64,000 nt of DNA from a virus (IMGVR_UViG_3300045988_108377:1-64000); one strand, 5' to 3'; counted from the stretch's first letter, positions 24,109-61,171 are shown. Notes: a model not told the origin generated them from the sequence alone. A program made the numbers and translations.

Positions 24109-25485
24109 TTAATTACCATTGTCTTCAACCGTTGGAAAACCAAACAATTGACGGACATCATTGTGCCGATGGTAACGTTGGTTGTTCGGTAACTTCATAT
24201 TGAACTCGTAATCAATTGCTGCTATGTATTCTTCGTCACTCAACTCTCTTGTTTTTTCTACTCCGAGTCGCCAATATGAGTCTCTGTCAGAATAGAATAC
24301 CTTAAATCCAAAATCATCAATTAGTTTCTGTACGTCCTCTTTGGAATGGAATTTCTGATAAAACCACTGACCTTCTAGCATTATCGCTGTTAAACCATTC
24401 TCGTCAAGAAAACGAGCCGAGAACATTTCATCTGTTGTATTTCTTTTCTGTGTCATTAAACTAAGGATTGTCTCCTTGCTTCTGCCACAGAAGAAAATCT
24501 TACCTCCAGGCTTACAGAACAACATGAGAATAGCAATAACAGAACGCTCAGCTTCAACACAATTTACTGAATTGATAACACTTTCTGCTATACAATAATC
24601 AAATTTTCCATTCTTCTTGACAAAATTGATAAGTTTGGTAATCATCTCTTGCCCCTTCTCCACGCTGATACCCTTGCGGTTATGATTGAAAAACTCTAAG
24701 CCTATTGCATTCTTATAGCCATATTTCTTCTTGAGCTTGTCGACACACATAGCTTTACCGCAACCAAAATCAAATACAGAAACATCTTTTTGATCTTTAA
24801 GAATCCATTTAGTTGCCACGCGATATAGGGTTGACCACTCCATTCCGGCAGCTCTTGGAGGTTGAGCTAGTCCTTGAACAAAATCTTCTCTGTCTAGATG
24901 GTCATAGCTGTAAACGCCATAATCCTTTGAGAAATAAAAATTGTACTTTTCCAAGTACTTTTTATCCAAAATATAGCCATGCACAGGAATATCAAGGATT
25001 TGGGCAGCTCTAACATAATTGTTTCCAAAAACAACTTGACCGTCACAAATAATAGCACTAAGTGCATCACCATAACGGGTGATAAGCATACACATGTCCT
25101 TGACGTATGATGCTCCGCTGTTTGGTATGTCAAAATCTTTATTGGAAATATCATCGTAGAATTTCCCGACTTCCAGATTTCCCTTATACAAACCTTTTTC
25201 TTTTGGTTCACTTTCTATTCCGTTATGAACTTGATTGAAAAGAATCTCGTCTACGAGCTGTACTCCAGATACGAAATAGGCTGGTACTTCATGAATACCA
25301 ATAGCTGTTGCAGCTTTTGTACGCTGGTGTCCGGCAACAATGGTCTTGTTGTCACGATTCACGATAATCGGCAGAATAAAGCCGAGGTCGTTAAGACTAC
25401 CTTGCAGGTTTACGAAAGCCTCTTGACTTAACTTTCGAGGATTGTAAGCTGCAGGCTTGATGTCTGAAATCTTGATAATCTCCAT
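24109..25485 (-). CDS. ParB/Srx-like N-terminal domain fused to a class I SAM-dependent methyltransferase
   Basis: 458 aa. The N-terminus IKPAAYNPRKL...VAGHQRTKAA is ParB-N-like. The C-terminal half has MTase motif I VFDFGCGKA followed by LEFF and FCKPGGKIFF. No DPPY/NPPY or PCQ DNA-MTase motifs were seen. Confidence 0.7.
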   Translation of the reverse strand: MEIIKISDIKPAAYNPRKLSQEAFVNLQGSLNDLGFILPIIVNRDNKTIVAGHQRTKAATAIGIHEVPAYFVSGVQLVDEILFNQVHNGIESEPKEKGLYKGNLEVGKFYDDISNKDFDIPNSGASYVKDMCMLITRYGDALSAIICDGQVVFGNNYVRAAQILDIPVHGYILDKKYLEKYNFYFSKDYGVYSYDHLDREDFVQGLAQPPRAAGMEWSTLYRVATKWILKDQKDVSVFDFGCGKAMCVDKLKKKYGYKNAIGLEFFNHNRKGISVEKGQEMITKLINFVKKNGKFDYCIAESVINSVNCVEAERSVIAILMLFCKPGGKIFFCGRSKETILSLMTQKRNTTDEMFSARFLDENGLTAIMLEGQWFYQKFHSKEDVQKLIDDFGFKVFYSDRDSYWRLGVEKTRELSDEEYIAAIDYEFNMKLPNNQRYHRHNDVRQLFGFPTVEDNGN

Positions 25486-26894: not shown

Positions 26895-27656
26895 TTAATC
26901 TTTAATTGCGATGATTCCACAAAAATTCAGGTGCTTCCAGAAGGTATCAATCTTTCGAAAACCTGCCATCTTTAACATACTGATGTTCATTTCTTCGGTA
27001 AGAGGGCAGAGCACACCTTCCAGGGACTTACGCTTGCCAGCTATCTGTTCTTCCGTATATTGGTTCTCTCGCTTCATGTCGTAATAGATTGAAGAGAAGA
27101 GTTCACCAATCTCGGCTGAGTTGCCGAGTACTTTTTCCACCAAGATGAAGGCACCGCCATCGTTTAGGCTGTTATAAACACTCTCTATGATTCCTTGGCG
27201 ATACTCTATTGGTATAAACTGCAAGGTGAGGCATGAGAGAATGACAGAGCAACCACCACTAAAACTAAGGTAACCAATTGGGTGCTTAGCGAGGTCTAAA
27301 CCCATGACACGAACATAACCTTCTGAAATCTGTTGTTTGTAGTGTTCACGACATTTTGCAAGCATCGGCTCGCTAACATCATAAAGATAGGAGATAACTT
27401 CTTTCGAATGGTTAGCGATAATGCCTTCTGCCGACAGACCATTGGCGCAACCTAAGTCCACGAACCGAGTGTTTGGCTTGATAAAATGCTCTGCAACATT
27501 ATCCACCAACTTTCGCATGACAGAGTAGTCTGGTATGGAGCGTTCCAACATATCCGTAAAAACGTCGGCTACGTTTTGGTCAAAATCCCAACTACCGGAC
27601 AGATTTCTTATGTCGTCTCGTTTCTTTGCTTCTATATTATTGTTTTGCTGTGCCAT
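26895..27656 (-). CDS. cmoA: CmoA-like carboxy-S-adenosyl-L-methionine (Cx-SAM) synthase homolog
   Basis: 253 aa, colinear by eye with E. coli CmoA (phage vs E. coli):
- WDFDQNVADVFTDMLERSIPDYS vs [23 protein letters not shown]
- VDLGCANG vs YDLGCSLG
- LTLQFIPIEYRQ vs FTLQFLEPSERQ
- GGAFILVEK vs GGALVLSEK
- GKRKSLEGV vs QKRSMLENV
- NFCGIIAIK vs NFGSLVALK. Confidence 0.75.
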   Translation of the reverse strand: MAQQNNNIEAKKRDDIRNLSGSWDFDQNVADVFTDMLERSIPDYSVMRKLVDNVAEHFIKPNTRFVDLGCANGLSAEGIIANHSKEVISYLYDVSEPMLAKCREHYKQQISEGYVRVMGLDLAKHPIGYLSFSGGCSVILSCLTLQFIPIEYRQGIIESVYNSLNDGGAFILVEKVLGNSAEIGELFSSIYYDMKRENQYTEEQIAGKRKSLEGVLCPLTEEMNISMLKMAGFRKIDTFWKHLNFCGIIAIKD

Positions 27657-35867: not shown

Positions 35868-36284
35868 TTATTTAAATTCGTGACTATTACAATTATCTAT
35901 ATCATTCATGGATACTCTGAGTAGCTCACAATACCCAGGCTCATCGCCAAAGAGACAGTTGCCACATCTTTTCGTAATTACACCGGCTTCAACTTCCATC
36001 TTAAAGTAATCTCTCCTTGTAATGTGATGTTTACCTGCCTCTTTCAGAACAGTCAAAGCAAACTCTTCGTTCGCTACTTCCAAGGCTTTTAGGGTGTTGA
36101 GGTCAACGTTGCAATTCTCGTCTGCTACACAAAGAGGAATATACCCCTCATGAGGGAAGTTTGTGCGACCGATATTCCAAACGATGTAGCCATAAGGAAA
36201 GTCTGGTACAATCTCAAAGGTATGGATGGTTCCCCATCCGTTGTCATCTACGAATTTTTCCATATCAAGTGATATTGTGTTCAT
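35868..36284 (-). CDS. hypothetical protein
   Basis: 138 aa, the first gene behind cassette I. C-terminal Cys cluster CGNCLFGDEPGYC...C. Confidence 0.55.
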   Translation of the reverse strand: MNTISLDMEKFVDDNGWGTIHTFEIVPDFPYGYIVWNIGRTNFPHEGYIPLCVADENCNVDLNTLKALEVANEEFALTVLKEAGKHHITRRDYFKMEVEAGVITKRCGNCLFGDEPGYCELLRVSMNDIDNCNSHEFK

Positions 36285-36402
36285 AATCTTTAATGTTTAA
36301 AAGTGAATGTTATGTTTATTATTTACAATACAAAGATACAAACAATTTATCAAATATGCAAGTTTTTAGGTGTATTTTTTTATCAAAAATGAAAGTTTTT
36401 TT
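36285..36402 (-). promoter_or_regulatory. promoter-leader cassette, copy I
   Basis: -7 box TATCTTTG at 36331-36338. The upstream half is almost identical to copy A (AAAAACTTGCATATTTGATAAATTGTTTG). Confidence 0.75.
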
Positions 36403-36404
36403 TT

Positions 36405-36435
36405 CAAGAAAAAGGGTGAGCCTTCCGACCCACCC
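36405..36435 (-). terminator. putative intrinsic terminator
   Basis: GGGTG..CACCC stem (36414-36435) followed in minus sense by TTTTTCTTG. Confidence 0.5.
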
Positions 36436-36482
36436 AAAGTTAAATAAAACAATCTTACTTATAGCTAACAATATTCAATTTC

Positions 36483-36617
36483 CTAACAGAAAATCCACAT
36501 AGCCACCAAAGTCAACACCAATCCTGCACAGGAAAGCAATGCGCCTTTTGCTGCTTCCTTTATTTCTTCTTTACCCCAATTCAAGGGATTCATCATATTT
36601 TTTTCTTCTGTCTTCAT
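36483..36617 (-). CDS. small membrane protein (44 aa)
   Basis: Below the track cutoff. ATG at 36615-36617 preceded by AGGAGGAACCGGT: MKTEEKNMMNPLNWGKEEIKEAAKGALLSCAGLVLTLVAMWIFC. Confidence 0.4.
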   Translation of the reverse strand: MKTEEKNMMNPLNWGKEEIKEAAKGALLSCAGLVLTLVAMWIFC

Positions 36618-36628
36618 ACCGGTTCCTC

Positions 36629-37006
36629 CTATATTTCAAGCCCCTTAATCTTTTCCATGAAACGGGCATTGTCTTTTTCAGCCCATTTGTTTTCAACACG
36701 ATAGATGATTTTACCAATATCTGTGCCGTTCCCTCCGTTATCCCATGTGGTATAACGATACTCCAAACTTACTATAAAATCAACGGAATCTTCTTTTTCG
36801 TTGACAACCGACTTGACAATACCTTCTATATGAATATTCTTAAATATCATAGGCTGCATAAAGAAGTTGCTGCCTGTAATCTTGATGTATTCCTCGTTTC
36901 TGTAATCTTTAGCTACTCCGAGGGTAAACTGGCAATTAACACCAAGTCTAAGCATTTTAGACTGAACATCATTTACGATAGCGTTTAAAATATTCTGATA
37001 CTTCAT
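36629..37006 (-). CDS. hypothetical protein
   Basis: I prefer the ATG at 37004-37006 (MKYQNILNAIV...), preceded by a leader-only copy (GCAAATAATAAATCATTTTTAAATTCAAAGATT). Confidence 0.55.
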   Translation of the reverse strand: MKYQNILNAIVNDVQSKMLRLGVNCQFTLGVAKDYRNEEYIKITGSNFFMQPMIFKNIHIEGIVKSVVNEKEDSVDFIVSLEYRYTTWDNGGNGTDIGKIIYRVENKWAEKDNARFMEKIKGLEI

Positions 37007-37053
37007 AATCTTTGAATTTAAAAATGATTTATTATTTGCTTTTTTCTCTTGTT

Positions 37054-37215
37054 TTAGATTTCTACCATCATGCCGTTCTCGTATTTGCAAACAACGAAAG
37101 CGTCTGTATTGTTTACCTTGTTACACTTTGCAGCAAGTTTATTAATTTTTGCTTTGTCAGCTAAGCCTTTTACAGGCTTACTGCTTCCTTTTTTTACTAC
37201 ATAAAACATTTCCAT
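37054..37215 (-). CDS. small basic protein (53 aa)
   Basis: Below the track cutoff. The first gene behind cassette K: MEMFYVVKKGSSKPVKGLADKAKINKLAAKCNKVNNTDAFVVCKYENGMMVEI. Confidence 0.45.
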   Translation of the reverse strand: MEMFYVVKKGSSKPVKGLADKAKINKLAAKCNKVNNTDAFVVCKYENGMMVEI

Positions 37216-37328
37216 AATCTTGAAAGTTTAAAGTATTATTGTTTATTATTTACAATACAAAGATACAAACAATTTATCAAATACGCAAGTTTTTAAGCAA
37301 TTATTTTATCAAAATTTGAAGTTTTTAC
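37216..37328 (-). promoter_or_regulatory. promoter-leader cassette, copy K
   Basis: -7 box TATCTTTG at 37258-37265. The leader is identical to copy F over GTAAATAATAAACAATAATACTTTAAACTTTCAAGATT. Confidence 0.75.
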
Positions 37329-37330
37329 AT

Positions 37331-37368
37331 AAGAAAATACCCTCGTCCAATCATTTTGGCGAGGGTAT
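37331..37368 (-). terminator. intrinsic terminator ending the lysis/metK-mtnN-luxS operon
   Basis: Perfect 9-bp stem ATACCCTCG (37337-37345) / CGAGGGTAT (37360-37368) followed in minus sense by TTTTCTT. Confidence 0.7.
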
Positions 37369-37397
37369 ATTACAAAACCTTAAAACTATGGAACATT

Positions 37398-38141
37398 TTA
37401 TTTCAGGCTTTGCCTTCGATACTTACTGAATACCCAACGAGCTAAAACGCTCGCCAGTATGACAAGTGCAATCCCTAAAAAGGTGAGAGCGATGTAAAGT
37501 GTCTGCTTGGATTCGGACACGGATTGTTTCTTGTCGGTTGAACGTTTTGTTTCTTTTCTCTTGTTCGTGGTCGCAGACGATGAGCTTTCGGAATTTGTAT
37601 TGTTTTCCTCTTTCTCGTTGGCAACCACTGTTGAAGCTTTATTTGTCATTTCCTTTTGCGCAGACGATGTTGAGGCTCCACGCTTCTCTATCTTCGTCTG
37701 CCTGATGGTCTTACTTACCTTTGGCTTGGCATCCTTGGCAGTATCGCTTGTGTCGTAGATGGTTGTTTCAGTAATAGTGACGGTCTCACTATTCTCTGAA
37801 GACTCATTCTTTTGCTCTGTGGTCGTGCTGACGGAATCGGTTGCGGACTTAGCCTTGTCTGACGATGTGGTGGAGTTAGTTTGCTCCGACGTATCTATTT
37901 GGGTCTGTTCCGTCTCGTTCTCGTTGACCTGCTCTGAGGACATTTGCTTGCTACTTCCACAAGATACAAGAATGATGATTGTGAACCATGCTATGCAGGA
38001 AAGCACAAATACGGATAGCACACCATGGTAACCTCCAAGAAAGCTCATAATGTTATGCGTTCCGAAACGTGATGCTCCGGACTCCTGGCTACTTCGCTCC
38101 ATACGTAGGGCTTTGAATAACTTGTTTATGACTTTTTCCAT
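37398..38141 (-). CDS. membrane-anchored Ser/Thr/Glu/Asn-rich low-complexity protein
   Basis: 247 aa. Hydrophobic segment 40-60 ends in ILVSCGSS (possible lipobox). A ~150-aa S/T/E/N/K-rich region and a C-terminal TM (LYIALTFLGIALVILASVLA) follow. It is the last gene of the operon, after luxS. Confidence 0.6.
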   Translation of the reverse strand: MEKVINKLFKALRMERSSQESGASRFGTHNIMSFLGGYHGVLSVFVLSCIAWFTIIILVSCGSSKQMSSEQVNENETEQTQIDTSEQTNSTTSSDKAKSATDSVSTTTEQKNESSENSETVTITETTIYDTSDTAKDAKPKVSKTIRQTKIEKRGASTSSAQKEMTNKASTVVANEKEENNTNSESSSSATTNKRKETKRSTDKKQSVSESKQTLYIALTFLGIALVILASVLARWVFSKYRRQSLK

Positions 38142-38152
38142 GATGATGTAAT

Positions 38153-38629
38153 TTAATATGGGTAACTCAAATTCTCTGCCTTGATGTCAGACAGAAAGTC
38201 CACAAACTCGTTTGCTGTTGACTTCGCTTGCTTTAGATCGTGTAAGGAATAGTTGCCACATTCCTTTGGTGAACTGCCTGGTATCACACCTTCATAGTCA
38301 GCAATGACTATGAACATATCCCTAATAAGGTCTATCACTTGCAAACTATCGTAGTCGCCATTGAGAATGAGGTAGAAACCTGTGAGGCATCCCATAGGTC
38401 CGAAATAAACGACCTTATCCTTCCATTTGCTGTCGTTGCGTAGGATTGTCGCTCCGATGTGTTCGATGGTGTGAGCGCACTCTGGAGTTAACATGTCGTA
38501 GTTCGGCTTCTTGATACGAATATCAATAGTTGTGATGGTCTCACCCATGGAAGTAACATCTTTGCGAGAAACATAGATTCCACGGTCTAACTTCGTGTGG
38601 TCCACTTTAAAACTTGCAATTTTACTCAT
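38153..38629 (-). CDS. luxS: S-ribosylhomocysteine lyase (LuxS)
   Basis: 158 aa. SFKVDHT, metal-site HTIEH, PMGCLTGFY and CGNYSLH all match E. coli LuxS (SFTVDHT, HTLEH, PMGCRTGFY, CGTYQMH). ATGA overlap with mtnN. Confidence 0.9.
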   Translation of the reverse strand: MSKIASFKVDHTKLDRGIYVSRKDVTSMGETITTIDIRIKKPNYDMLTPECAHTIEHIGATILRNDSKWKDKVVYFGPMGCLTGFYLILNGDYDSLQVIDLIRDMFIVIADYEGVIPGSSPKECGNYSLHDLKQAKSTANEFVDFLSDIKAENLSYPY

Positions 38630-39318
38630 ACCAATTCCTCCAAGATTTTCTTTGTTTTGTCAAACGACCATTTTGCTACGTATTTCCAAAAATTCTCATA
38701 TTGCTCTTCTTCACAATTATCACTTATGATTCTGATGGCCACGAACGGAACCTTATAGCGGTAGCAGGTCTGTGCGATACTGCAACTCTCCATGTCTACA
38801 ACGGAAGCCAATGGATATGTTGCTTTAAGTTTAGCCTTTATTACCGGGTCGACAATGAACTGGTCGCCACTGATAACACCAGCTATTCTTATGTTGTGTC
38901 CGAGTATTTTTCCAATACGAGCACATAAGTCACCTTCGGTGTTGATGCCAACCTCCAAAGGTGTGAATGTGCTTGGCATTCCTTGTACTTGTCCCTTGAC
39001 AAGTTCTTTTCCACAGAACACATCATGATAATGATACCATACACCCATGATAGTCTCACCCGAATGTAATTCTTCGTCCAGTGAGCCTGCTACTCCGGTA
39101 GATAGTATAAAGTCTGGTTCGTAGAGGGTAATCATTTCAGCAGCTCCCAAAGCAGAGTTGACCTTGCCTATTCCGCACTGCTGTATGACCACTTCATTCT
39201 TGCCGACATTACCGATCAAATAGTCAAATACTCTGCCATGTTCGGCTTGTCCTTCTGAAATGAATCCTTTTAGCAGCTCCATTTCCTTAGACATAGCTAC
39301 TAATATTCCTATCTTCAT
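38626..39318 (-). CDS. mtnN: 5'-methylthioadenosine/S-adenosylhomocysteine nucleosidase
   Basis: 230 aa. MKIGILVAMSKEMELL, CGIGKVNSALGA, STGVAGSL, VSGDQF, VDMESCSIAQ and FVAIRIISD are colinear with E. coli MtnN/Pfs. ATGA overlap with metK. Confidence 0.9.
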   Translation of the reverse strand: MKIGILVAMSKEMELLKGFISEGQAEHGRVFDYLIGNVGKNEVVIQQCGIGKVNSALGAAEMITLYEPDFILSTGVAGSLDEELHSGETIMGVWYHYHDVFCGKELVKGQVQGMPSTFTPLEVGINTEGDLCARIGKILGHNIRIAGVISGDQFIVDPVIKAKLKATYPLASVVDMESCSIAQTCYRYKVPFVAIRIISDNCEEEQYENFWKYVAKWSFDKTKKILEELV

Positions 39319-40592
39319 AAGCCAAAAGCCTCTTTGATGTAATCAACAGAATCAAGCTTTTCCCATGTAAAAAGCTCAACTTCAATACTATGACCTTCGA
39401 TTTTCTTGCGTTTCTTGCAAGGAATTCTGCCCATGTGCCCATAAGCAGCAGTTTCTTCATAGATAGGCTGATTAAGTTTCAACTTCTCAACGATTGCTCT
39501 TGGACGCATGTCGAAATTAGAAGCAATCCATTCTGTAACACCTTCGTCAGTCATTTCTACGTGTGAAGTACCATAGGTGTCAACACAGATACTTACTGGC
39601 TCTGCCATACCGATAGCGTAGGAAATCTGAATGAGCATCTTATCGGAAACACCTGCAGCAACCATATTCTTCGCGATATAGCGAGCCATATAGGCTGCTG
39701 AACGGTCTACCTTACTGCTATCTTTACCTGAGAAGGCACCTCCTCCATGCGCTCCAGCACCTCCGTATGTATCTACGATAATCTTACGACCTGTGAGACC
39801 TGTATCTCCATGAGGACCACCAATTACGAACTTGCCAGTCGGATTCACAAGCAACTTGAATCCCTTGTCAAACATCTTGACAACATTGTCGTCAGCAATC
39901 TGTTCCTTAACTTCTTGAAGAACGTAGTTCTCAACATCGTATGCTATCTGTTTCTGCATTTCTGCATCGGCTTCATCTTGCGACATCGTTTTCGATGGCT
40001 TGATAAAGTCCTCGTGCTGAGTTGAGACAACAATGGTGTCAATGCCGAAAGGTTTGCTGTCTTTGTATTCGACGGTTACTTGACTCTTCGAATCCGGACG
40101 CAAATATTTCATGCCACGCCCATTCTTTCTAATGAAAGCAAGTTCCTTGACAATCTTTGTGGCGATGTAGTGGGAGAGAGGCATGAATGTTTCAGTCTCG
40201 TTGGTTGCGTAACCGAACATCATACCCTGGTCGCCGGCACCTTGCTCATCTTTTGACTGCCGGATAACACCCCTGTCGATGTCTGCGCTCTGCTCATGCA
40301 AAAGATTGATGATACTACAACTCTCGAAGTCAAAGTTGTCACCATATTCCGTGTAGCCAATGCGCTTGATGGTCTTACGTACAACCTTAGACACATCTAC
40401 ATGAGCGGTTGATTTTACCTCACCAGCGAGAACTACCTGGTTGGTAGTAACCAAAGTTTCGCAAGCTACATGAGCATCAGCATCCTTTGCTATATAAGCG
40501 TCAAGAATAGCATCGGAAATCTGGTCTGCAACCTTGTCAGGGTGTCCTTCTGATACGGATTCTGATGTAAAAAGTTTCTTTTCTTCTATCAT
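39315..40592 (-). CDS. metK: S-adenosylmethionine synthetase
   Basis: 425 aa. FTSESVSEGHPDKVADQISDAILDA, GAGDQGMMFGYA, GGPHGDTGLTGRKIIVDTYGG and GGGAFSGKD. Long Bacteroidetes-like form. Confidence 0.95.
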   Translation of the reverse strand: MIEEKKLFTSESVSEGHPDKVADQISDAILDAYIAKDADAHVACETLVTTNQVVLAGEVKSTAHVDVSKVVRKTIKRIGYTEYGDNFDFESCSIINLLHEQSADIDRGVIRQSKDEQGAGDQGMMFGYATNETETFMPLSHYIATKIVKELAFIRKNGRGMKYLRPDSKSQVTVEYKDSKPFGIDTIVVSTQHEDFIKPSKTMSQDEADAEMQKQIAYDVENYVLQEVKEQIADDNVVKMFDKGFKLLVNPTGKFVIGGPHGDTGLTGRKIIVDTYGGAGAHGGGAFSGKDSSKVDRSAAYMARYIAKNMVAAGVSDKMLIQISYAIGMAEPVSICVDTYGTSHVEMTDEGVTEWIASNFDMRPRAIVEKLKLNQPIYEETAAYGHMGRIPCKKRKKIEGHSIEVELFTWEKLDSVDYIKEAFGL

Positions 40593-40605
40593 AATATACT
40601 GATTT

Positions 40606-41169
40606 TTATGCGATTACTTTTCCGTTGTCGGCAATAAGCTTTCCATATTGAATGTTCTTGACTCGTCTAAGCCATCCGTTGAGATTAACCTCTTGCGACG
40701 GGTCATTTTTCACTATTTGATGAAAATAAGCTATGCGTTTTACTTTTAAAGCGTCAAAAAGCACCCACTGACCTTTCCTGTAATTGTTGATGGCTGAAAT
40801 CGTAGCAGGTCCCATGACTCCATCTTGCTTTGTGCCGACGCAACTTTGAATATATCTCACGGCTCGGCTTACTCCGCTGTTGTAGGCAAAGTCTACCAAT
40901 AGGTTTGCTACGCTCTGGTTCTTTATATGGTCACCCCAACAAGCATCCCAATAATTGAGTTTAAAGACTCTGTTGTAGTCGTCTTCCGTCAATAGCTTGA
41001 TGTCCTCAGCTGTAATAGCTCTATCGCCATTCTTGTCATAACCAACCTTTTTCCACGTTGCAAGTGTAATGCCGTATTTTGTCGGTCCACCTCTATCAGA
41101 CCTATGGTTGGTGTACTTGTTAGACTCAAAGCTAAGAACAAACTTTGATAATTGTCTTGAATCTGCCAT
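40606..41169 (-). CDS. endolysin, GH108-type N-terminal domain with PG_binding_3-like C-terminus
   Basis: 187 aa. FESNKYTNHRSDRGGPTKYGIT matches the GH108 signature (FEGGY...D.GG.T..GIT). It follows a holin-like gene with a TAATG overlap. Confidence 0.8.
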   Translation of the reverse strand: MADSRQLSKFVLSFESNKYTNHRSDRGGPTKYGITLATWKKVGYDKNGDRAITAEDIKLLTEDDYNRVFKLNYWDACWGDHIKNQSVANLLVDFAYNSGVSRAVRYIQSCVGTKQDGVMGPATISAINNYRKGQWVLFDALKVKRIAYFHQIVKNDPSQEVNLNGWLRRVKNIQYGKLIADNGKVIA

Positions 41170-41453
41170 TATTCATCTGTTTTAAATTCTTGTTTACGTT
41201 CTCCTCGTTCTCCAATGGTCTTTGTCAGACCTGCAGAGACAAATAGGGTAGAGATACTGCCAACGTATGCACTGATACCCATGAGGTCTGTCTTGATCGT
41301 CCCATAAGTGATAACTTCCCAAATAAGGATAAATACTACAGACAGCAACATCAGGCAACCTATAAGCGTAACAGATACCAAGAAGAATGCCTTACTTGAA
41401 TGTCCGCTGTTTACCTTTATGAGTTTAGTGAAATAATCCGCTATCTTTTTCAT
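41169..41453 (-). CDS. holin-like protein (two TM segments)
   Basis: 94 aa. TM1 AFFLVSVTLIGCLMLLSVVFILIW, TM2 LMGISAYVGSISTLFVSAGL, charged C-terminus. Immediately upstream of the endolysin. Confidence 0.6.
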   Translation of the reverse strand: MKKIADYFTKLIKVNSGHSSKAFFLVSVTLIGCLMLLSVVFILIWEVITYGTIKTDLMGISAYVGSISTLFVSAGLTKTIGERGERKQEFKTDE

Positions 41454-41911
41454 ATCTCTTCATTTTCTCCATCGGTTCGGTCTATGTATTGGTTGTTTTC
41501 CATTTCAACCCTCCTGATAAGCTCTTCTCGCTTTCTGGGAGGCTTTCTTTTGGGGCAGCCGTTTACTTCACACTTATTCCAATCTAACTCTGCATTGAGC
41601 ATCTGCAAATCGTGGTTCTTACTTTCGAGTCCGCTAATCGTATCTCGTAAGATGTTAATCTTGTCGTATAAAGAATCTATCTTGCCATCCTTAACCTTGA
41701 TTTCTTCTTCCTTATTCCGTACATCTTCATCACGTTTCTCGCAAAGTTTCCTCCAACCATCGGCTGAGGTGGCTATAGCCTTACCTTCCTCTTGTGAAGC
41801 CTCGGCTGCTGCTTTACGTTTACGAATACTAAAAAATAATGCACCACTCAATATTGGAATAACGCCTGTATTTATGATGGTTATGATTTCTACAATGCTC
41901 GATATTGACAT
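41450..41911 (-). CDS. lysis-associated membrane protein (N-terminal TM plus coiled coil; holin/antiholin or spanin-like)
   Basis: 153 aa. N-terminal TM IITIINTGVIPILSGALFFSI, then a coiled coil. ATGA overlap with the holin-like gene. Confidence 0.45.
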   Translation of the reverse strand: MSISSIVEIITIINTGVIPILSGALFFSIRKRKAAAEASQEEGKAIATSADGWRKLCEKRDEDVRNKEEEIKVKDGKIDSLYDKINILRDTISGLESKNHDLQMLNAELDWNKCEVNGCPKRKPPRKREELIRRVEMENNQYIDRTDGENEEI

Positions 41912-41927
41912 ATTCTTCTTTTTGCCA

Positions 41928-41957
41928 CAAAGTTACTTTTATTCTATGCTAAAGTAA
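41928..41957 (-). promoter_or_regulatory. promoter of the lysis/metK-mtnN-luxS operon
   Basis: -7 box TAACTTTG at 41928-41935, 16 nt upstream of the ATG at 41911. A TTTG-containing T-rich stretch lies about 22 nt upstream. It sits directly after the dut terminator. Confidence 0.5.
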
Positions 41958-42004
41958 CAAAAAAGGGGACTAACTTACTGCATCATGCCTTGCAGTGTTA
42001 GTCC
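41958..42004 (-). terminator. strong intrinsic terminator after dut
   Basis: Composite stem GGGACTAAC-TT-ACTGCA / TGCAGT-GTTAGTCCC (41966-42004) followed in minus sense by CTTTTTTGTT. Confidence 0.8.
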
Positions 42005-42029
42005 CTTTATTAAAAATGAAAAAGTAGCC

Positions 42030-42572
42030 TTACCTTGTACCTGTATGCCCGATTCCTCCACCTCTGTTAGGATAGTTTTCGTCATAGTCTTTCGCTTCTA
42101 TCATTTTACTGCTATAAGTTTTGTAAAATGTCAGCTGTGCTATACGAGTACCTTTCTTGATTGTAAACTCTCCGTCGTCATTCTTGACAACTACGTTCAG
42201 TTGGTCTTGATAGCCTGGGTCTATCTTGCCTGATATTACATCAGCATTAAAACGATGCTTCCCGTTGAACTTCTTCCAATACGTTATGAGGCCGAAGAGC
42301 TTTCTTTTTTCCTTCCATACTCCGTAACCTTCAAACCCCTTTGCTGCAAATCCACTACGTGATTCTATTTTACATTCTACTCCGTATGGGAGCTGCACAC
42401 CGAAACCTAATTGCACCATTGCCCTTGAATGAGCTGGAATTATGGTGTCATATGGCGCATATACATCGAATCCTATCGAGTATTTATCAGCTTTCTTTGG
42501 ATTGATAAAATCTCCAAGAGGAATGATTTTAATGGTTCCTCTTGGATGTCTCTTCTTATTTGTTTTCTTCAT
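42030..42572 (-). CDS. dut: dUTPase (dUTP diphosphatase family)
   Basis: 180 aa. Motifs IGFDVYA, ESRSGFA, GKIDPGYQD, RIAQL and C-terminal RGGGIGHTG match dUTPase motifs 1-5. There is an insertion between motifs 2 and 3. Confidence 0.8.
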   Translation of the reverse strand: MKKTNKKRHPRGTIKIIPLGDFINPKKADKYSIGFDVYAPYDTIIPAHSRAMVQLGFGVQLPYGVECKIESRSGFAAKGFEGYGVWKEKRKLFGLITYWKKFNGKHRFNADVISGKIDPGYQDQLNVVVKNDDGEFTIKKGTRIAQLTFYKTYSSKMIEAKDYDENYPNRGGGIGHTGTR

Positions 42573-42975
42573 TTTGTTGTTTTCTTTTCAAAGTATCTTT
42601 GTAACTTTCTAACACTTCCAAAAGTCTGTTTAGAGAGTAAGAGGCAAAGGACTTTTCCCATCCTTTTACGCTATAGTATTTGACGTTGTAACCAGATAGA
42701 CTTAACAACTCTTTGTTTGTCTTGTGCAGTTCTTCTGTCGCCTTTGTTCTGATGGTAAGGACTACGCAGAAAATTGCCGATAACAAATCGTTTGTCAACT
42801 TGTCTTCATCAAGTTTCAACGAACCGTTGTACGCATCTATCTTGTTGTTCCATGTTGTAATTCTCGTGATGGTATCGTTATTAACTTTGATAGGTTCCTT
42901 TGCTCCAAATACGAACTGCTGGTCTTTACCTACCAACTTAACTACGGCTTGCTCGTAATCATATTCCTTTTCCAT
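42556..42975 (-). CDS. hypothetical protein
   Basis: I prefer the ATG at 42973-42975 (MEKEYDYEQAVVKL...) directly behind cassette L. The track start at 43065 lies in the cassette. Confidence 0.55.
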   Translation of the reverse strand: MEKEYDYEQAVVKLVGKDQQFVFGAKEPIKVNNDTITRITTWNNKIDAYNGSLKLDEDKLTNDLLSAIFCVVLTIRTKATEELHKTNKELLSLSGYNVKYYSVKGWEKSFASYSLNRLLEVLESYKDTLKRKQQNEENK

Positions 42976-43084
42976 AATCTTTGTATTTTTAAAGTGAATG
43001 TTATGTTTATTATTTACATTACAAAGATACAAACAACTTATCAAATACGCAAATGTTTTGAGCAATTATTTTTGTAAATTTGCA
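42976..43084 (-). promoter_or_regulatory. promoter-leader cassette, copy L
   Basis: -7 box TATCTTTG at 43022-43029. Leader GTAAATAATAAACATAACATTCACTTTAAAAATACAAAGATT + ATG. It abuts the stop of 43085..43918. Confidence 0.75.
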
Positions 43085-43918
43085 TTATTTTTTCGTCACT
43101 TTAAACTTGTTTTCTAATCTTTCCACTCCCATTGTTTCCAACTCGCAGCTCTTAACTTCCTTGTCGAAATGGCCTAACCGTAAGGCATCAAGGCAATATT
43201 GGTTCCGGAAGCCATCATCTGACAATTTCTCGTTTATAGCTTTGTATGCTTGTTCTGATGCGTAGTTTCGTGTCGGGTGTAAATTGTTCTTCTTGTAATG
43301 AACCTTTGAGTCTGCAAAGGCATACATGGCACCTACAGCCACATTTAATGTCGCCTCCTTATAGCTTTTGCTAAAGTCTATATGATACTCGTCCTTGTAA
43401 ATCTGAATGTGTGCCTTGAATACCTCATCGTATAAGTTTATCATGGCTCTTGCCGTCTCTATCTGAGCTATAATGTCGCAGTCCTTTAAACCTTTTCGCT
43501 CATAGTAAAACTTAAATGTAAGCGTCAAGTCAAACAATAGTTTCTCCAGACCTTCGTATGCCTTGTTACATGAATCACTAACCAATCCTCTTGCCCTCGT
43601 CTCCATGTGTTTCGCAAGATAGTCATTGTATTTATCAAAATCTTTTTTGATGGCTTCCAACCATTTCTTGTTTTGAAACTTGATAAGGTTTCGCTCGTCG
43701 TACCAGTCGTATACCTTTAGAAACTCCTGTTCTGCAATATATCGGTAGACTAATACGATAGTAAAGAATAAGTCTCGGCAATTCTTCCTGGCAAACTCCT
43801 TTGTCTTCGGGTCAAGCAACTTTTTAATGTTCATGACCACTGTCTTTTCAATGTAATGCGGATTGCCTTTGTTAGTCTTATTTGCAAAAGCTTTACTAAT
43901 ATTTTCTTTCGTCTCCAT
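43085..43918 (-). CDS. hypothetical protein
   Basis: 277 aa, helical. No motif recognised. Confidence 0.6.
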   Translation of the reverse strand: METKENISKAFANKTNKGNPHYIEKTVVMNIKKLLDPKTKEFARKNCRDLFFTIVLVYRYIAEQEFLKVYDWYDERNLIKFQNKKWLEAIKKDFDKYNDYLAKHMETRARGLVSDSCNKAYEGLEKLLFDLTLTFKFYYERKGLKDCDIIAQIETARAMINLYDEVFKAHIQIYKDEYHIDFSKSYKEATLNVAVGAMYAFADSKVHYKKNNLHPTRNYASEQAYKAINEKLSDDGFRNQYCLDALRLGHFDKEVKSCELETMGVERLENKFKVTKK

Positions 43919-55430: not shown

Positions 55431-55685
55431 TTAAGCTAATTTAACCCTTCGTGGGTTTGGCTTCACGTTCTCAAAAATATCACTTGCATTGAACTGCCAT
55501 TTAGTGTTTGGTGCTCCTGCTGGTTTTTTATATCTGACTTTCTCTTCCAACATCAGCCGTTCAAGCCTCTTCTTGCCTCCAACGACCTTCTGGGCGATTT
55601 TCCATGAAAGGTTGATTCCATTCATCTGTGTCAGTATTTGAAGATATTTTTGAGCCATGATTGCTGTTTTCAAATCTTCCATCAT
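55431..55685 (-). CDS. small DNA-binding protein, excisionase/HTH_17-like (tentative)
   Basis: 84 aa. ...VRYKKPAGAPNTKWQFNASDIFENV resembles the C-terminal wing of MerR/excisionase-type HTH proteins. Confidence 0.35.
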   Translation of the reverse strand: MMEDLKTAIMAQKYLQILTQMNGINLSWKIAQKVVGGKKRLERLMLEEKVRYKKPAGAPNTKWQFNASDIFENVKPNPRRVKLA

Positions 55686-55689
55686 CTAA

Positions 55690-55923
55690 TCATTTTAAGA
55701 TAGCTTTCAAGCCAAGCTCTCTGATGTTTTCTAAATCGAACACGGAACCTACGAATTTGGCGACCATATAAAGAACCAACTCTTGTTGGGAGGATATTCC
55801 TAACTTCTTGTATATGTGTTTCTTATGTGTCCGTATAGTCCAAATCGGTTTGCTCAATCTTTCTGCCACCTCCTTGTCTATAAACCCATGGCAGTAAAGT
55901 TCAGCTACTTTATGTTCTACCAT
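55690..55923 (-). CDS. LuxR/GerE-type HTH transcriptional regulator (DNA-binding domain only)
   Basis: 77 aa. DKEVAERLSKPIWTIRTHKKHIYKKLGISSQQELV fits the GerE HTH pattern. No receiver or autoinducer domain. Confidence 0.6.
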   Translation of the reverse strand: MVEHKVAELYCHGFIDKEVAERLSKPIWTIRTHKKHIYKKLGISSQQELVLYMVAKFVGSVFDLENIRELGLKAILK

Positions 55924-55939
55924 GCTTAACTCGATAGCT

Positions 55940-56143
55940 TTAGCTGACCCGAAGAATAGTGATGCTACAATCCTTCTTATTAACTATCTTTTTGACATCC
56001 CATTTTTCACGCATCAATTCTCTTTTCAGACGGCTGATAACCGTTGTAATGGAGCTGTAGCGTTCCATCGGGAATGTCAGTCGGTCTCCGATTCTCAATT
56101 CTCGGAGTTCCGCTGTGATTGGTTTTTTGATAAGCTCTTCCAT
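55940..56143 (-). CDS. first early gene of the switch region (Cro-like role possible)
   Basis: 67 aa, transcribed divergently from the repressor from the cassette-type promoter at 56297-56304, through a ~150-nt leader. Confidence 0.45.
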   Translation of the reverse strand: MEELIKKPITAELRELRIGDRLTFPMERYSSITTVISRLKRELMREKWDVKKIVNKKDCSITILRVS

Positions 56144-56426
56144 TTCTCTATTTTTTGTTAAACTTTGCCCCCTAAAGGGGGCCGACTTGTAATAATCTAG
56201 CCTAAATCATCTTTTTGTTACTTTTAGGTACGTTAAAAATTTGCATAAGAACGAATAATTTTGTAATTTTGTTGTTGTTGTTATTATTTGACATTGCAAA
56301 GATAAGAAAAAGTTATCATTTGTGCAAGTTTTTAAGGAGAAAATTTTATATTTTTGATAAAAAAGTTGTAAAACGGAACGCTGATAAGTGGTTCTTGTTG
56401 GTATTCACATTATTATATATAGAATT
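56144..56426. promoter_or_regulatory. divergent genetic-switch region (variant cassette P and the repressor promoter)
   Basis: Minus-strand -7 TATCTTTG at 56297-56304 with leader CAAATAATAACAACAACAAC... and the GC hairpin GCCCCC-TAAA-GGGGGC (56167-56182). Plus-strand -7 TATTTTTG at 56349-56356, followed by a leader ending AGAATT + ATG at 56427. Confidence 0.6.
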
Positions 56427-56888
56427 ATGAACGAAGGAACTAATAAGTATAACGTGCGTGAGATAATCGCTAACGTGCTGCAAGCGGTTGGAATGAACGG
56501 ACCTGGATTTGCCAAAGCCATAGGTCTTCCATATACCGTGGTTTATAATTTGCAAAGTGGTAGGACGAAGAAGTTCAGACCAGCTATAGCTAACCCAATG
56601 GTCAAGGCTTTCCCACGACTTAATTTGGAATACCTATATACTGGTGACGGTGAAGTACTAAAAGATGAGGTTCCTTCTGAAACAGAACGTGTCTCTAAAT
56701 TTGCCGGTTCATTGGATAATGTTGTGGAACTTCAAAAGAAGATTTTCGATAAACTAGATGAACTTAGCAAAAAGGAAAAAGAACTGAACGAAATGGAAAG
56801 AAGACTCAACTTAAAAGAACTTGAACTAATAAAACGAGAAAGTGAGTGTCAATTACGGGAAAGTAAGCTTGGTATTCAAAAAGTATAG
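56427..56888 (+). CDS. CI-like repressor (N-terminal HTH, C-terminal coiled coil)
   Basis: I prefer the ATG at 56427. MNEGTNKYNVREIIANVLQAVGMNGPGFAKAIGLPYTVVYNLQSGRTKK...LNLEYLYTGDGEV. The LEYLxTGxG signature is typical of phage repressors. On the plus strand next to the integrase. Confidence 0.65.
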   Translation: MNEGTNKYNVREIIANVLQAVGMNGPGFAKAIGLPYTVVYNLQSGRTKKFRPAIANPMVKAFPRLNLEYLYTGDGEVLKDEVPSETERVSKFAGSLDNVVELQKKIFDKLDELSKKEKELNEMERRLNLKELELIKRESECQLRESKLGIQKV

Positions 56889-56934: not shown

Positions 56935-57160
56935 TGTTGTCGGAGTAAATCTTAAAGATGAGTAACTAACAGAAAACAAGAGTATTATATATAGATGAAG
57001 AAGAATACGATAGTTCACTTTGGTTTTATTTCAAAAAGCTTTGTGGTTAGTTAAAACTTTGATATATAACTTGTTATATAAATATGGGTCATTCAAAAGT
57101 AGATACGAAACTGTTGTCGGAATACTTGCGAATGGCTCGTAACAAACCGAAAAGTTGTCG
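56935..57160. promoter_or_regulatory. direct repeats and a palindrome upstream of int (candidate arm sites/attP or int regulatory region)
   Basis: TGTTGTCGGAGTA (56935-56947), TGTTGTCGGAATA (57112-57124) and GTTGTCG (57154-57160). Perfect palindrome TATATAAC-TT-GTTATATA (57063-57080). Confidence 0.3.
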
Positions 57161-57163
57161 CAA

Positions 57164-58393
57164 ATGAATCTGAGAGTTGTCATACTTCCTGCTAAGGTCT
57201 TGACGGACGGAAGTCATAAAGTTAGAATTGCAATTTCACACAGAGGTAACACAAGATACTTTGTTACCAGATTTACCGTGCCATCGGAGAAAAACTTGGT
57301 TAATGGCAATGTCGTTGGAATACCGAATGCCGCATACATCAACAACCAAATCAGACTGAAACTAAATAAAATCTATAATGCCTTCGACTCCCTGGAGGAA
57401 TCTGATTATTATACGTGTTCTCAGTTGGTAACTATGATTGAGGAAAAGATTTCCGGCACCAAACCAATGACGCTTCATCAGCTTGGAGTGGAATATATCA
57501 AAGTGAGGCGTTCTGTGGTAGCTGATGGTACAGTCTATATATACGAGCGAGGAATGGCAGAAATTGACTCGTTCTTTGGCACAGACTTTATCCTTCCTAA
57601 ACTTAAGGTTACTGATGTAAGTGCTTTCAAGGAATACTTGTCGAAAAAGCTTAATCCAACGACAACCAACTTAAGATTGCGTGTTCTAAACATGATTGTT
57701 ACCTATGCTGTTAGGCACAATTATGTCAAGTATGATGTATCTCCGTTTACCGATGTGCCATTGCCTCACGGAAACGTTAGAAACTGCGCAATATCAATCG
57801 AACAATTACGTGTTGTAAGAGATATGGAGTTCTCAAATTCTCGTCTTGATGTTTGCCTTTCTTTTGTTAGAGACATCTTTATGCTTTCGTTCTATCTGTG
57901 TGGTATGAACTTAGCGGATATTCTCTCTATGGATTTACGTAAAGACTCTGTTTCGTTTGTCAGACAGAAGACTAAGAACAGAAAAACTGACGGGGTTAAG
58001 ACTGAATTTACGATTCAGCCCGAGGCGAGAAAAATCCTTGATAGATTACTTGACAAAGACGGAAATATTGTATTCAAAGGAAAGAAAATGAGATACGACC
58101 CTATATCATGTTTGTTCTCCCGTAACTTTTCTGAGATTGCAGTAAGATGCGGAATTGAAACTCAATTCATATTCTATTCGGCCCGCAAGACTTTTGCACA
58201 AATCGCAAATGAGCTTATGGTAAAAGACTCCATCATAGAATATTGTATAGGTGACACTGTTACTTCTAGTAAAAAGATAATTGGCTACTATATTTCTGTT
58301 AACCAACGTATGGCAGACAAGGCAATACGAAAAATTTTTGATGCCGTTGCCTCTGACAAAAGTATAGAAGAACTTGTTGAGGATGCCATATAA
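57164..58393 (+). CDS. int: tyrosine recombinase/integrase (Bacteroides phage type)
   Basis: I prefer the ATG at 57164, since the track start at 57155 is TTG. It has an N-terminal arm-binding-like domain (MNLRVVILPAKVLTDGSHKVRIAISHRGNTRYF) and a SAM-like core (LHQLGVEYIK...). The C-terminal catalytic region includes ARKTFAQ and a terminal GYY. Confidence 0.8.
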   Translation: MNLRVVILPAKVLTDGSHKVRIAISHRGNTRYFVTRFTVPSEKNLVNGNVVGIPNAAYINNQIRLKLNKIYNAFDSLEESDYYTCSQLVTMIEEKISGTKPMTLHQLGVEYIKVRRSVVADGTVYIYERGMAEIDSFFGTDFILPKLKVTDVSAFKEYLSKKLNPTTTNLRLRVLNMIVTYAVRHNYVKYDVSPFTDVPLPHGNVRNCAISIEQLRVVRDMEFSNSRLDVCLSFVRDIFMLSFYLCGMNLADILSMDLRKDSVSFVRQKTKNRKTDGVKTEFTIQPEARKILDRLLDKDGNIVFKGKKMRYDPISCLFSRNFSEIAVRCGIETQFIFYSARKTFAQIANELMVKDSIIEYCIGDTVTSSKKIIGYYISVNQRMADKAIRKIFDAVASDKSIEELVEDAI

Positions 58394-58659: not shown

Positions 58660-59343
58660 TTAAAGTTTTCCTTTGTCATGATATGAATAATAGGTATTTA
58701 CCTTACTACTGATGATAACGTGATCCGAAAAGAAAAGGTTCATTACTTGACAAGCCTTTTGTATCTTCATAGTCAGTATATCGTCATTCTTGCTGGGCGT
58801 AGTGTTACAGCTTGGATGGTTGTGAACGAGTGCTATAATGGTAGCGTTACACATTATAGCCTCCTTGCATATCAGTCTTATATCTACAGTAGTTTCTGTA
58901 TTGCCTCCAACAGAAATGCGTACTCTTTTGATTAGTTTGAAATTTTGGTCCATACATAAAACCCATGATTCTTCGTGGTCCAAGTCAAGGGTAAACGGAC
59001 GCATATAGTTGTATATAAATAAAGAACTTCCTAAGTCTGTAATATCTTCCGCTTCCTCTTTCATCAGCCTTCTTCCTATTTCAAAGGCAGCGAGCAGAGC
59101 TGCAGCCTTCTTTTCGCCAATACCTTTTACCTTTACAAGTTCATCAAATGTTTTCTTTTTCGCCAATTTGCGTAAGCTATGACTACCATCGAATAAATCA
59201 CGGACAGGTTGGTTTGCCTCATTCATAATATCAATGCCGAGAACGGCTGCTATCAAATTCTCGTTGCTTACGTATTCCGTTCCATATCGCTCTATCATGG
59301 TTGCGGTAGTATCATACCAACACTTCTTGCTATTGTCTCTCAT
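58660..59343 (-). CDS. radC: RadC-like JAB/MPN domain protein
   Basis: 227 aa with an HhH-like KVKGIGEKKAAALLAAFEIGRR and the JAB motif HNHPSCNTTPSKNDDILT. Confidence 0.85.
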   Translation of the reverse strand: MRDNSKKCWYDTTATMIERYGTEYVSNENLIAAVLGIDIMNEANQPVRDLFDGSHSLRKLAKKKTFDELVKVKGIGEKKAAALLAAFEIGRRLMKEEAEDITDLGSSLFIYNYMRPFTLDLDHEESWVLCMDQNFKLIKRVRISVGGNTETTVDIRLICKEAIMCNATIIALVHNHPSCNTTPSKNDDILTMKIQKACQVMNLFFSDHVIISSKVNTYYSYHDKGKL

Positions 59344-60667: not shown

Positions 60668-61171
60668 TTATACATCAAAATACTCCCTTACATCGAACAC
60701 TCTATCCTTATCTTCCAATTTGTCTAAAGCCAGCATGTGAATATCGCTAAACAACTCATCATTTGGCATGTCTTCCAAAGTCTTACCGGCTATTACAGCC
60801 ACAGACTTTGCGCTATCGGAATAAATCATGTTCATGGTGACGAACAATGCCCACTTGTTGTAATAAGGCTTATCCTCCAATCGTAAACCAAGGCTCTCCA
60901 TTACCTTCTCCCACTCGGTGGAATCCCAACCACCCTTAGGATTCATATTTCCGACAATAGTCATGGCTTCCTTCTTTGTCAAGTAGTTGTCCCATTCTAT
61001 GGAGTACAGCTTGTTGACGTACTCACAAGCTAACTCTGGCTTCATAGCAGCCATATCCTGCATCATACACTTCATCGTCTCACCGAAGGCGTGCATATAC
61101 TTTGGTTCATTTGAAGTAACCATCGTATTATACAGACCATTGAAAACATTCATCAATTCTTTCTGTTCCAT
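60668..61171 (-). CDS. hypothetical protein
   Basis: 167 aa. No motif recognised. Confidence 0.55.
   Translation of the reverse strand: MEQKELMNVFNGLYNTMVTSNEPKYMHAFGETMKCMMQDMAAMKPELACEYVNKLYSIEWDNYLTKKEAMTIVGNMNPKGGWDSTEWEKVMESLGLRLEDKPYYNKWALFVTMNMIYSDSAKSVAVIAGKTLEDMPNDELFSDIHMLALDKLEDKDRVFDVREYFDV

Follow-up and report, generated by a model that had tools for sequence, protein, structure and literature searches.

The window analysed here is a 64,000-nucleotide stretch of viral DNA (IMGVR_UViG_3300045988_108377:1-64000) from a temperate tailed phage of Segatella (Prevotella) copri with a genome of about 80 kb. On its minus strand lies a unit of seven genes encoding, in order, a transmembrane (TM)/coiled-coil protein, a holin-like protein, a GH108 endolysin, the S-adenosylmethionine (SAM) synthetase MetK, the nucleosidase MtnN, the S-ribosylhomocysteine lyase LuxS and a spanin-type lipoprotein. 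The three enzymes are viral auxiliary metabolic genes (AMGs) by context, with phage genes on both sides and the arrangement repeated in independent contigs.

Organisation of the seven-gene unit

The first gene of the lysis module encodes a 153-amino-acid (aa) protein with an N-terminal TM segment and a coiled coil (41450-41911, minus strand; phrog_32423). Candidate roles are those of an i-spanin-like protein or a holin partner, the cassette also having a gene of the unimolecular spanin (u-spanin) type. A W-x-x-C-x4-C...PPRKR motif, i-spanin-like in character, is conserved between this protein and its counterpart in relative L176 (9292-9720). The holin-like membrane protein (94 aa; 41169-41453, minus strand) is recognized by hydropathy and is 69-97% conserved in relatives; it has no family match in Pfam, NCBIfam or PHROG profile searches. 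The endolysin (40606-41169, minus strand) combines GH108 (PF05838) with PG_binding_3 (PF09374) and matches the phrog_315 endolysin profile at E = 1e-39.

The enzyme genes follow on the same strand. metK (39315-40592; 425 aa) scores 498 bits against TIGR01034 (cutoff 309.4), contains PF00438, PF02772 and PF02773, and has the motifs GHPDK, GAGDQG and GGGAFSGKD identical in alignment to the solved structure 3iml. mtnN (pfs; 38626-39318; 230 aa), which encodes the methylthioadenosine (MTA)/S-adenosylhomocysteine (SAH) nucleosidase, scores 120.6 bits against TIGR01704 (cutoff 73.8) and also matches PNP_UDP_1, while staying below the stricter NF004079 cutoff (152 vs 169). Its Glu12 (AMSKE(12)M), VDMES and ISDN segments align with AMEEEV, VEMEA and VSDL of 3bl6; the catalytic residues in Escherichia coli numbering are Glu12, Met173-Glu174 and Ser196-Asp197. 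luxS (38153-38629; 158 aa) matches PF02664 at E = 5.8e-53 and NF002604 at 194.8 bits (cutoff 158), and its HTIEH, PMGCLTG (Cys84 equivalent) and KECG..H (Cys126 equivalent) motifs align with Bacillus subtilis 1j98. Ratios of nonsynonymous to synonymous substitution (dN/dS) are 0.06-0.09 for metK, 0.05-0.13 for mtnN and 0.05-0.07 for luxS; the trio as a whole (0.05-0.13) is under strong purifying selection similar to that on the lysis genes. The first-pass annotation had credited all three genes with catalytic signatures, and both this and its coordinates and gene calls hold: the residues are kept against the solved structures, and the inactivating substitutions it had named as a possible objection are absent from the catalytic and ligand positions in these alignments. 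metK, mtnN and luxS thus look functional, as judged from their sequences.

The junctions are tight. ATGA overlaps join the TM/coiled-coil and holin-like genes, metK and mtnN, and mtnN and luxS; a TAATG overlap joins the holin-like gene to the endolysin; and 13 nt separate the endolysin stop from the metK start, with 11 nt between the luxS stop and the spanin-type gene. The ATGA joins and the 13-nt gap are as first described. No hairpin is seen between the endolysin and the spanin-type gene, and no Rfam element, riboswitches included, is found in 36000-43500. An escape of the phage metK from control by a SAM riboswitch was considered and dropped, the chromosomal gene chosen for comparison having proved to be prophage-borne. 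A classic moron, with its own promoter and terminator, was considered for the trio and rejected on the 13- and 11-nt gaps, the ATGA overlaps and the lack of an internal hairpin.

Conserved signals bound the unit on both sides. Upstream, a terminator-like hairpin with a T-run (41959-42005, minus strand; -22.9 kcal/mol, z = -4.86) follows the dUTPase gene (42030-42572) and marks the 5' boundary; L002, L005 and L006 preserve its stem through compensatory changes. Next comes a Bacteroidota-type -7 promoter box, TAACTTTG (41928-41935, minus strand; consensus TAnnTTTG), 16 nt from the first ATG, and all five aligned sequences (the window, L001, L002, L005 and L006) read TAACTTTG or TATCTTTG there. 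Downstream, the terminator proposed at 37331-37368 (minus strand) proves real, stable and conserved (-18.6 kcal/mol, z = -5.19, with compensatory changes in the stem) and forms the 3' boundary, past which a new TATCTTTG box at 37258-37265 would serve the next gene. Relatives L001, L002, L005 and L006 retain both hairpins as well as the upstream box. The window contains 101 TAnnTTTG matches where 67 are expected, a count that none of 100 shuffles reaches, and this excess fits a Bacteroidota host.

The box at 41928-41935 had also been described as the only promoter candidate. It is real and conserved, but it is not the only one, since a second TAnnTTTG match, TAGCTTTG, lies at 41127-41134 inside the endolysin gene. 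TAGCTTTG is conserved in all AMG-bearing relatives, and an AMG-less relative reads TTAGTTGG at this place, a contrast confounded by coding constraint as well as by how closely the sequences are related. Taken together, the conserved signals fit a single transcription unit, and the seven genes are probably co-transcribed.

The last gene of the unit (37398-38141, minus strand) encodes a 247-aa S/T-rich lipoprotein with the lipobox LVSC (Cys61) and a C-terminal TM segment at residues 211-240; relatives in L002 and L006 have FVSC or LVSC as lipobox. Unimolecular spanins are defined by an N-terminal lipobox, a C-terminal TM domain and a place at the end of the lysis cassette (Kongari et al. 2018, PMC6139136). 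Scored by regular expression and hydropathy, the 37398-38141 product has this topology and is a putative lysis gene. The family evolves fast, with dN/dS of 0.21-0.30 for this gene against 0.03-0.10 for the other lysis genes; its C-terminal TM region is conserved and carries the significant homology. One homologue, L010_186 (E = 9e-15), has a classic signal peptidase II signal, MKVVKLLLCLLLLASC, and another, L234 o170 of a Prevotella lacticifex prophage (E = 9.5e-16 over 199 aa), has a ...LLLASC signal; both genes lie directly 3' of a GH19-like lysozyme gene, the position that spanin-type homologues occupy in L010, L234 and L244-L251. A lipobox, a C-terminal TM domain, the last place in the cassette and homologues after endolysin genes are features shared with the u-spanin prototype T1 gp11 (PMC6139136). 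The 58 known u-spanins have a β-rich periplasmic domain and no periplasmic cysteine (PMC6139136). The window protein has no sequence similarity to them, its periplasmic part is rich in S/T/E/K and probably disordered rather than β-rich, and its N-terminal leader is long, about 60 aa. Periplasmic cysteines are absent from it and number two in the L002 homologue. Homology to a 197-aa lipoprotein/TM protein of AMG-less relatives was considered and set aside (E = 0.057), the architecture alone being common to the two.

Where the first-pass annotation saw an S/T-rich membrane protein, there is accordingly a lipoprotein with a C-terminal anchor, of spanin type, whose homologues follow the endolysin in two other phage lineages. 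Because the last gene is of this type, the enzyme trio is flanked by the endolysin and spanin-type genes and so lies within the lysis cassette instead of being appended to it.

Recurrence and origin of the linkage

Arrangements were read among the best 80 viral MetK relatives. Lysis-module homologues lie within 3.5 kb of metK in 27 of these 80, mostly within the interval between dUTPase and ParB. The window type, with lysis genes, metK, mtnN, luxS and a spanin-like gene in this order, is found at 6 loci. A second order (holin, metK, GH19-like lysozyme, spanin-like) occurs at 8 loci and in L234; a third (metK, lipoprotein, luxS, lysozyme, spanin-like) at 3 loci; and a fourth (metK, mtnN, lysozyme, spanin-like) at 3 loci and 2 truncated ones. 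At 4 further loci metK, mtnN and luxS are followed by a spanin-like gene about 0.8 kb downstream, and 3 loci read lysozyme, mtnN, luxS, metK, two of them having a holin homologue behind metK. Placement of such genes in a lysis operon had been called unusual; related Bacteroidales-type phages, however, intersperse lysis genes with metK, whether or not mtnN and luxS accompany it, in at least six arrangements, and the placement is a recurrent trait of the group.

The content of the block varies. Related phages carry metK alone, metK and mtnN, metK and luxS, or all three, and metK is the constant member. Loci L254, L258 and L270 have metK and mtnN without luxS (metK-mtnN-lysozyme). L242, L243 and L009 have metK and luxS without mtnN (metK-lipoprotein-luxS), with a 226-aa lipoprotein-like open reading frame (ORF) in the mtnN position. 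The 226-aa ORF between metK and luxS in L010 was tried as a diverged MtnN and rejected (E = 2.1); it resembles lipoprotein o196 of L234 (36%).

The same three-gene lysis module, in which the 153-aa protein co-occurs with the holin-like and endolysin genes, is present without AMGs in 33 IMG/VR contigs (41%, about 72% and about 71% identity). In the three AMG-less relatives whose downstream ORFs were read (L176, L167 and L169), the endolysin is followed by a variable block on the opposite strand and then by a protein with a lipobox and a C-terminal TM segment. The variable block marks the gap between the endolysin and the spanin-type gene as a cargo site.

The enzymes themselves are distant from those of the host group. 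Phage LuxS is 57-58% identical to chromosomal Prevotella/Segatella LuxS, and phage MtnN 38-40% to chromosomal MtnN. The metK-linked viral LuxS proteins form one clade with 95% bootstrap support by neighbour-joining, apart from the clade of chromosomal Prevotellaceae sequences (100%); as the tree is distance-based and built on just 158 aa, only its well-supported splits are to be trusted. The nearest named MetK, that of Prevotella lacticifex (68%), is itself prophage-borne, and ordinary chromosomal Bacteroidales MetK proteins reach about 64-65%. The gene for this P. lacticifex "methionine adenosyltransferase" (L234 3001-4248, GCA_019973395.1) lies in a prophage between a Phage_holin_4_1 holin and a lysozyme. 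The trio consists of old phage-resident genes rather than recent captures.

Another viral lineage carries only mtnN and luxS. This IMG/VR lineage, L011-L080, is very abundant, making up about 70 of 80 listed loci, and its gene pair sits just upstream of the major capsid gene (e.g. L014 9355-10462). Its LuxS is separate from the metK-linked viral clade and groups weakly with Ruminococcus (63% bootstrap); the lineage may be one of Firmicutes phages.

Chromosomal counterparts exist in the host group. Segatella cerevisiae (L084) and abundant Prevotella contigs from the gut (L315) have a yfhO-mtnN-luxS locus. Published work finds in gut Bacteroidales either sahH or an mtnN-luxS pair on the chromosome beside yfhO, and luxS in Segatella; phages are not mentioned in that work (Kennedy et al. 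2026, bioRxiv 10.64898/2026.07.27.740950). The phage shares with this chromosomal locus the order mtnN then luxS and the chemistry, but its pair is linked to metK and lysis genes instead of yfhO and belongs to a separate LuxS clade.

Host, integration site and other phage genes

The cassette has a replication module upstream and ParB, methyltransferase, packaging/terminase and tail genes downstream. Tailed-phage genes in the window include those for a tape-measure protein, the large terminase, two helicases, a DnaD-like loader, ParB proteins and an integrase. The tyrosine integrase is of Bacteroidota type (57164-58393, plus strand), and the exact protein occurs in both integrated and non-integrated contigs; it is the version with an ATG start at 57164 that matched in the look-up, the TTG-start version giving no match. 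An 82.7-kb contig matches the window, and phage genes extend past the integrase on both sides.

Two contigs contain the integrated state, in which the integrase is followed directly by ftsY, rpmG, rpmB, cinA, tsaD, map, metH and smpB. The host is S. copri, as the FtsY, Map and TsaD sequences beside the integrated phage are identical to S. copri proteins. Identity between window and host stops at about 56,995-57,000 of the window, at the 3' end of ftsY (L227 6094-8448), which places the approximate attP core at 56995-57020 (window vs L227). An intact attP is therefore present in the window, about 165 bp upstream of the start of the integrase gene, and the enzymes are not host flank. Host DNA at a prophage end, with attachment sites between 37300 and 42000, had been named as the main objection to a phage origin; the phage-host junction lies instead near 57.0 kb at ftsY. 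A tRNA gene is not involved in integration, none being found in the window by ARAGORN. The host metH (L227 12855-15641) is about 5.5 kb from the integration site, probably by coincidence.

A lysogeny-control region (55431-56888) adjoins the integrase and contains small divergent ORFs, one with a weak GerE-type helix-turn-helix match, as well as a 166-aa plus-strand ORF. The GC skew switches sign locally at 56-58 kb. Past the integrase, and still within the phage, are a RadC-like JAB protein and a DUF7841 protein at 58660-59343 and 60668-61171.

Exact matches to the LuxS protein come from 76 blocks of the public assembly collection (ENA, Logan), a Hadza sample among them, and all eight human-gut contigs listed there have the same seven genes around it; the same cassette is present in 6 IMG/VR contigs. 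Megablast of the 4.7-kb region against GenBank phages gave a single 251-bp match. LuxS had no match above 60% identity among GTDB species genomes, and host assignment by that route failed. MetK relatives, with 128 records, are common among GenBank phages, whereas those of LuxS (12 records) and MtnN (8 records) are rare, the last two sets being mostly unannotated faecal contigs or doubtful fragments.

Four presumed SAM consumers are encoded in the window, all on the minus strand. An N6/N4 DNA methyltransferase (N6_N4_Mtase; 7563-8297) matches PF01555 at E = 7.6e-29; a ParB_N domain (PF02195) is fused to a putative methyltransferase domain at 24109-25485 (phrog_5475, phrog_498); a class-I SAM-dependent methyltransferase lies at 26895-27656 (PF08242, PF13649, PF08241); and a C5 cytosine DNA methyltransferase of dcm type at 51287-52648 matches PF00145 at E = 2.5e-36. 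Pfam confirms the four SAM-utilising enzymes first described, the match of the ParB fusion to Methyltransf_23 (PF13489) being weak at 23.1 bits, below the 27-bit cutoff.

Proposed role of the enzymes

We favour, with moderate confidence, a role of the trio in late-phase SAM supply and SAH removal for the four methyltransferases of the phage, within a seven-gene late/lysis unit. Expressed with the lysis genes, and with metK, mtnN and luxS translationally coupled by their ATGA overlaps, MetK would form SAM from methionine and ATP. The methyltransferases would consume SAM and release SAH, which MtnN would cleave irreversibly, lifting strong product inhibition of the methyltransferases. LuxS would then convert S-ribosylhomocysteine into homocysteine, to be returned to methionine by host MetH, with 4,5-dihydroxy-2,3-pentanedione (DPD), the precursor of autoinducer 2 (AI-2), as by-product. 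The likely benefit would be full methylation of newly replicated phage DNA before packaging. Co-transcription, late timing and a purpose in methylation are what we infer.

A SAM-centred role fits better than an AI-2-centred one because metK is constant among the relatives while mtnN and luxS come and go. Other viral lineages place metK-luxS next to a Dam-like methyltransferase (L081, L261, L263); such an enzyme adjoins metK-luxS or lies 1.8-3.6 kb downstream of metK at 20 of the 80 viral MetK loci (L261, L263 and 18 among L283-L314). The Dam-like methylases of L081 (10730-12145), L261, L263 and the L283-L314 group are fused to a GNAT-like domain (PF22555 and PF22559).

Of the four steps of the activated methyl cycle, the phage encodes three. 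Its annotated part contains no methionine synthase for the step from homocysteine to methionine, a step for which the host has metH. Since this step was not found, the cycle is not self-sufficient, contrary to the self-sufficient methyl-donor economy first proposed.

Several points weigh against methylation support as the role of the trio. Its benefit depends on host MetH and on the methionine supply. Host versions of MetK, MtnN and LuxS are reported, and the need for extra copies is an assumption. Late timing is deduced from the linkage to lysis genes alone, and the internal TAGCTTTG box could, as a promoter, allow expression of the enzymes but not of the holin, for instance in lysogens. A methyltransferase is near viral luxS at 11 of 80 loci, an uninformative count, since the flanks there are shorter than the corresponding distances within the window.

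The alternative that survives best, though we hold it to be unlikely, is a rewiring of sulfur and amino-acid metabolism, in which the flow from methionine through SAM and SAH to homocysteine would feed cysteine or sulfide formation or supply nutrients for virions. The pathway chemistry permits this, and it has a published basis: metK, mtnN, luxS and dcm are classed as methionine-degradation AMGs and dominate among the AMGs of human-associated viruses, where luxS with mtnN and metK with dcm occur on single genomes, dN/dS is below 1 and an association with Prevotella is seen at 80-96% protein identity (Kieft et al. 2021, bioRxiv 10.1101/2021.01.05.425418). The same three enzyme families are thus found on uncultivated gut viruses in that study, which reads them as serving sulfide production. 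We prefer methylation support for the window phage: no gene leading from homocysteine to cysteine or sulfide is found among its annotated large ORFs, its genome is rich in methyltransferases, and metK stands beside Dam-like methyltransferases in the other lineages. The location of the AMGs was not consistent in that study, "adjacent to lysis factors" being one of several places listed (Kieft et al. 2021); the window trio differs in forming one translationally coupled block inside the lysis cassette, with a linkage that recurs in relatives.

Decidedly improbable is a role as moron-like cargo for lysogenic conversion, in which the prophage would express the enzymes and its S. copri lysogen would gain from their methyl-cycle capacity or AI-2 output. 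Lambdoid phages classically carry cargo near their lysis genes, as with stx upstream of S-R-Rz and bor downstream, and the window phage shares with them accessory genes beside the lysis cassette on what is presumably a late transcript. The phage is also temperate and found integrated beside ftsY, and conservation of the box within the endolysin gene is confined to AMG-bearing relatives. Lambdoid morons, however, have their own promoter and terminator; no such pair surrounds the trio, which is coupled by ATGA overlaps and stands 13 nt from the endolysin, with the spanin-type gene downstream in the same seven-gene unit. The confounding already noted for the internal box also reduces its weight here.

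Manipulation of a quorum signal is very unlikely. LuxS would then be kept to raise the output of DPD and AI-2 and so to signal to other phages or the community, and its intact sequence, purifying selection and distinct virus-associated clade (95% bootstrap) agree with that; release at lysis would give a pulse of signal. Yet Segatella is reported to make LuxS natively, and related phages with metK alone or with metK and mtnN have no luxS. Bacteroidaceae did not respond to AI-2 in tests (Kennedy et al. 2026, bioRxiv 10.64898/2026.07.27.740950). AI-2 production is probably not a new trait either, since a chromosomal mtnN-luxS pair beside yfhO is reported for Segatella and the abundant gut Prevotella contigs show the locus, so that the AI-2 side effect raised as a possibility by the first-pass annotation is probably overstated.

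Only a slim chance attaches to counter-defence through metabolite pools, in which SAM would be kept high, or SAH, MTA and 5'-deoxyadenosine cleared, to counter a competing phage or a host defence that drains these pools or makes use of them. The nucleoside range of MtnN is broad, and phages and hosts are known to contend over the SAM level, T3 SAM lyase being active against BREX and type I restriction-modification systems. Like T3, the window phage would manipulate the host SAM pool in a context of restriction and defence, but T3 destroys SAM whereas the window phage would make it and clear SAH. No specific defence system is indicated, and no search for defence or anti-defence homologues was made.

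That the trio belongs to the host flank of a prophage or results from chimeric assembly, as enzymes typical of cellular housekeeping might suggest, can practically be dismissed: phage genes stand on both sides, the cassette is identical in many independent assemblies, the true junction is 15 kb away near 57.0 kb beside ftsY, and phage MtnN and LuxS are just 38-58% identical to the chromosomal Prevotella proteins.

Methylation support, the reading retained here, has precedents in other gut phages. In the parts of the Ca. Heliusvirales preprint used here, dcm is given for 67% and metK for 58.9% of genomes, and the combination is read as help against restriction-modification (bioRxiv 10.1101/2023.08.29.555303). 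Similar carriage of metK and dcm in gut phages, with SAH removal via ahcY, is described in the corresponding parts of PMC12180181. The window phage resembles these temperate gut phages in having a SAM synthetase and a C5 DNA methyltransferase, and differs in its mtnN and luxS, which those parts of the two reports do not mention. Viral metK, mtnN, luxS and dcm, and their link to methylation as protection from restriction, are therefore already published, and the locus is no new kind of system. The additions made here are modest: a trio embedded in the lysis cassette, recurrently within a phage group, and an unannotated spanin-type family.

Two broader ideas can be attached to the locus. The wiring of the methyl cycle into lysis cassettes of Prevotellaceae phages, in at least six orders, might be selected in its own right, with the SAM/SAH ratio or a lysis-released pulse of DPD and AI-2 linked functionally to the timing of lysis or to signalling among phages or cells; this is speculative and has little chance of being correct. 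In a related speculation, the long-lived phage-resident mtnN-luxS lineage might have been a vehicle for some of the replacements of sahH by mtnN-luxS that are reported to have occurred repeatedly in Bacteroidota.

For Bacteroidales phages, the spanin-type genes represent a lysis family that currently lacks annotation. Host assignment by the best protein match of an AMG can mislead or be circular, as the prophage-borne "Prevotella lacticifex MetK" illustrates, and surveys of luxS and AI-2 capacity in gut Bacteroidales should count phage-borne copies too. S. copri is among the most abundant human gut bacteria, especially in non-industrialised populations, and the locus offers a clean and tractable case for deciding whether the methyl-cycle genes of gut phages serve DNA methylation, sulfur metabolism or signalling.

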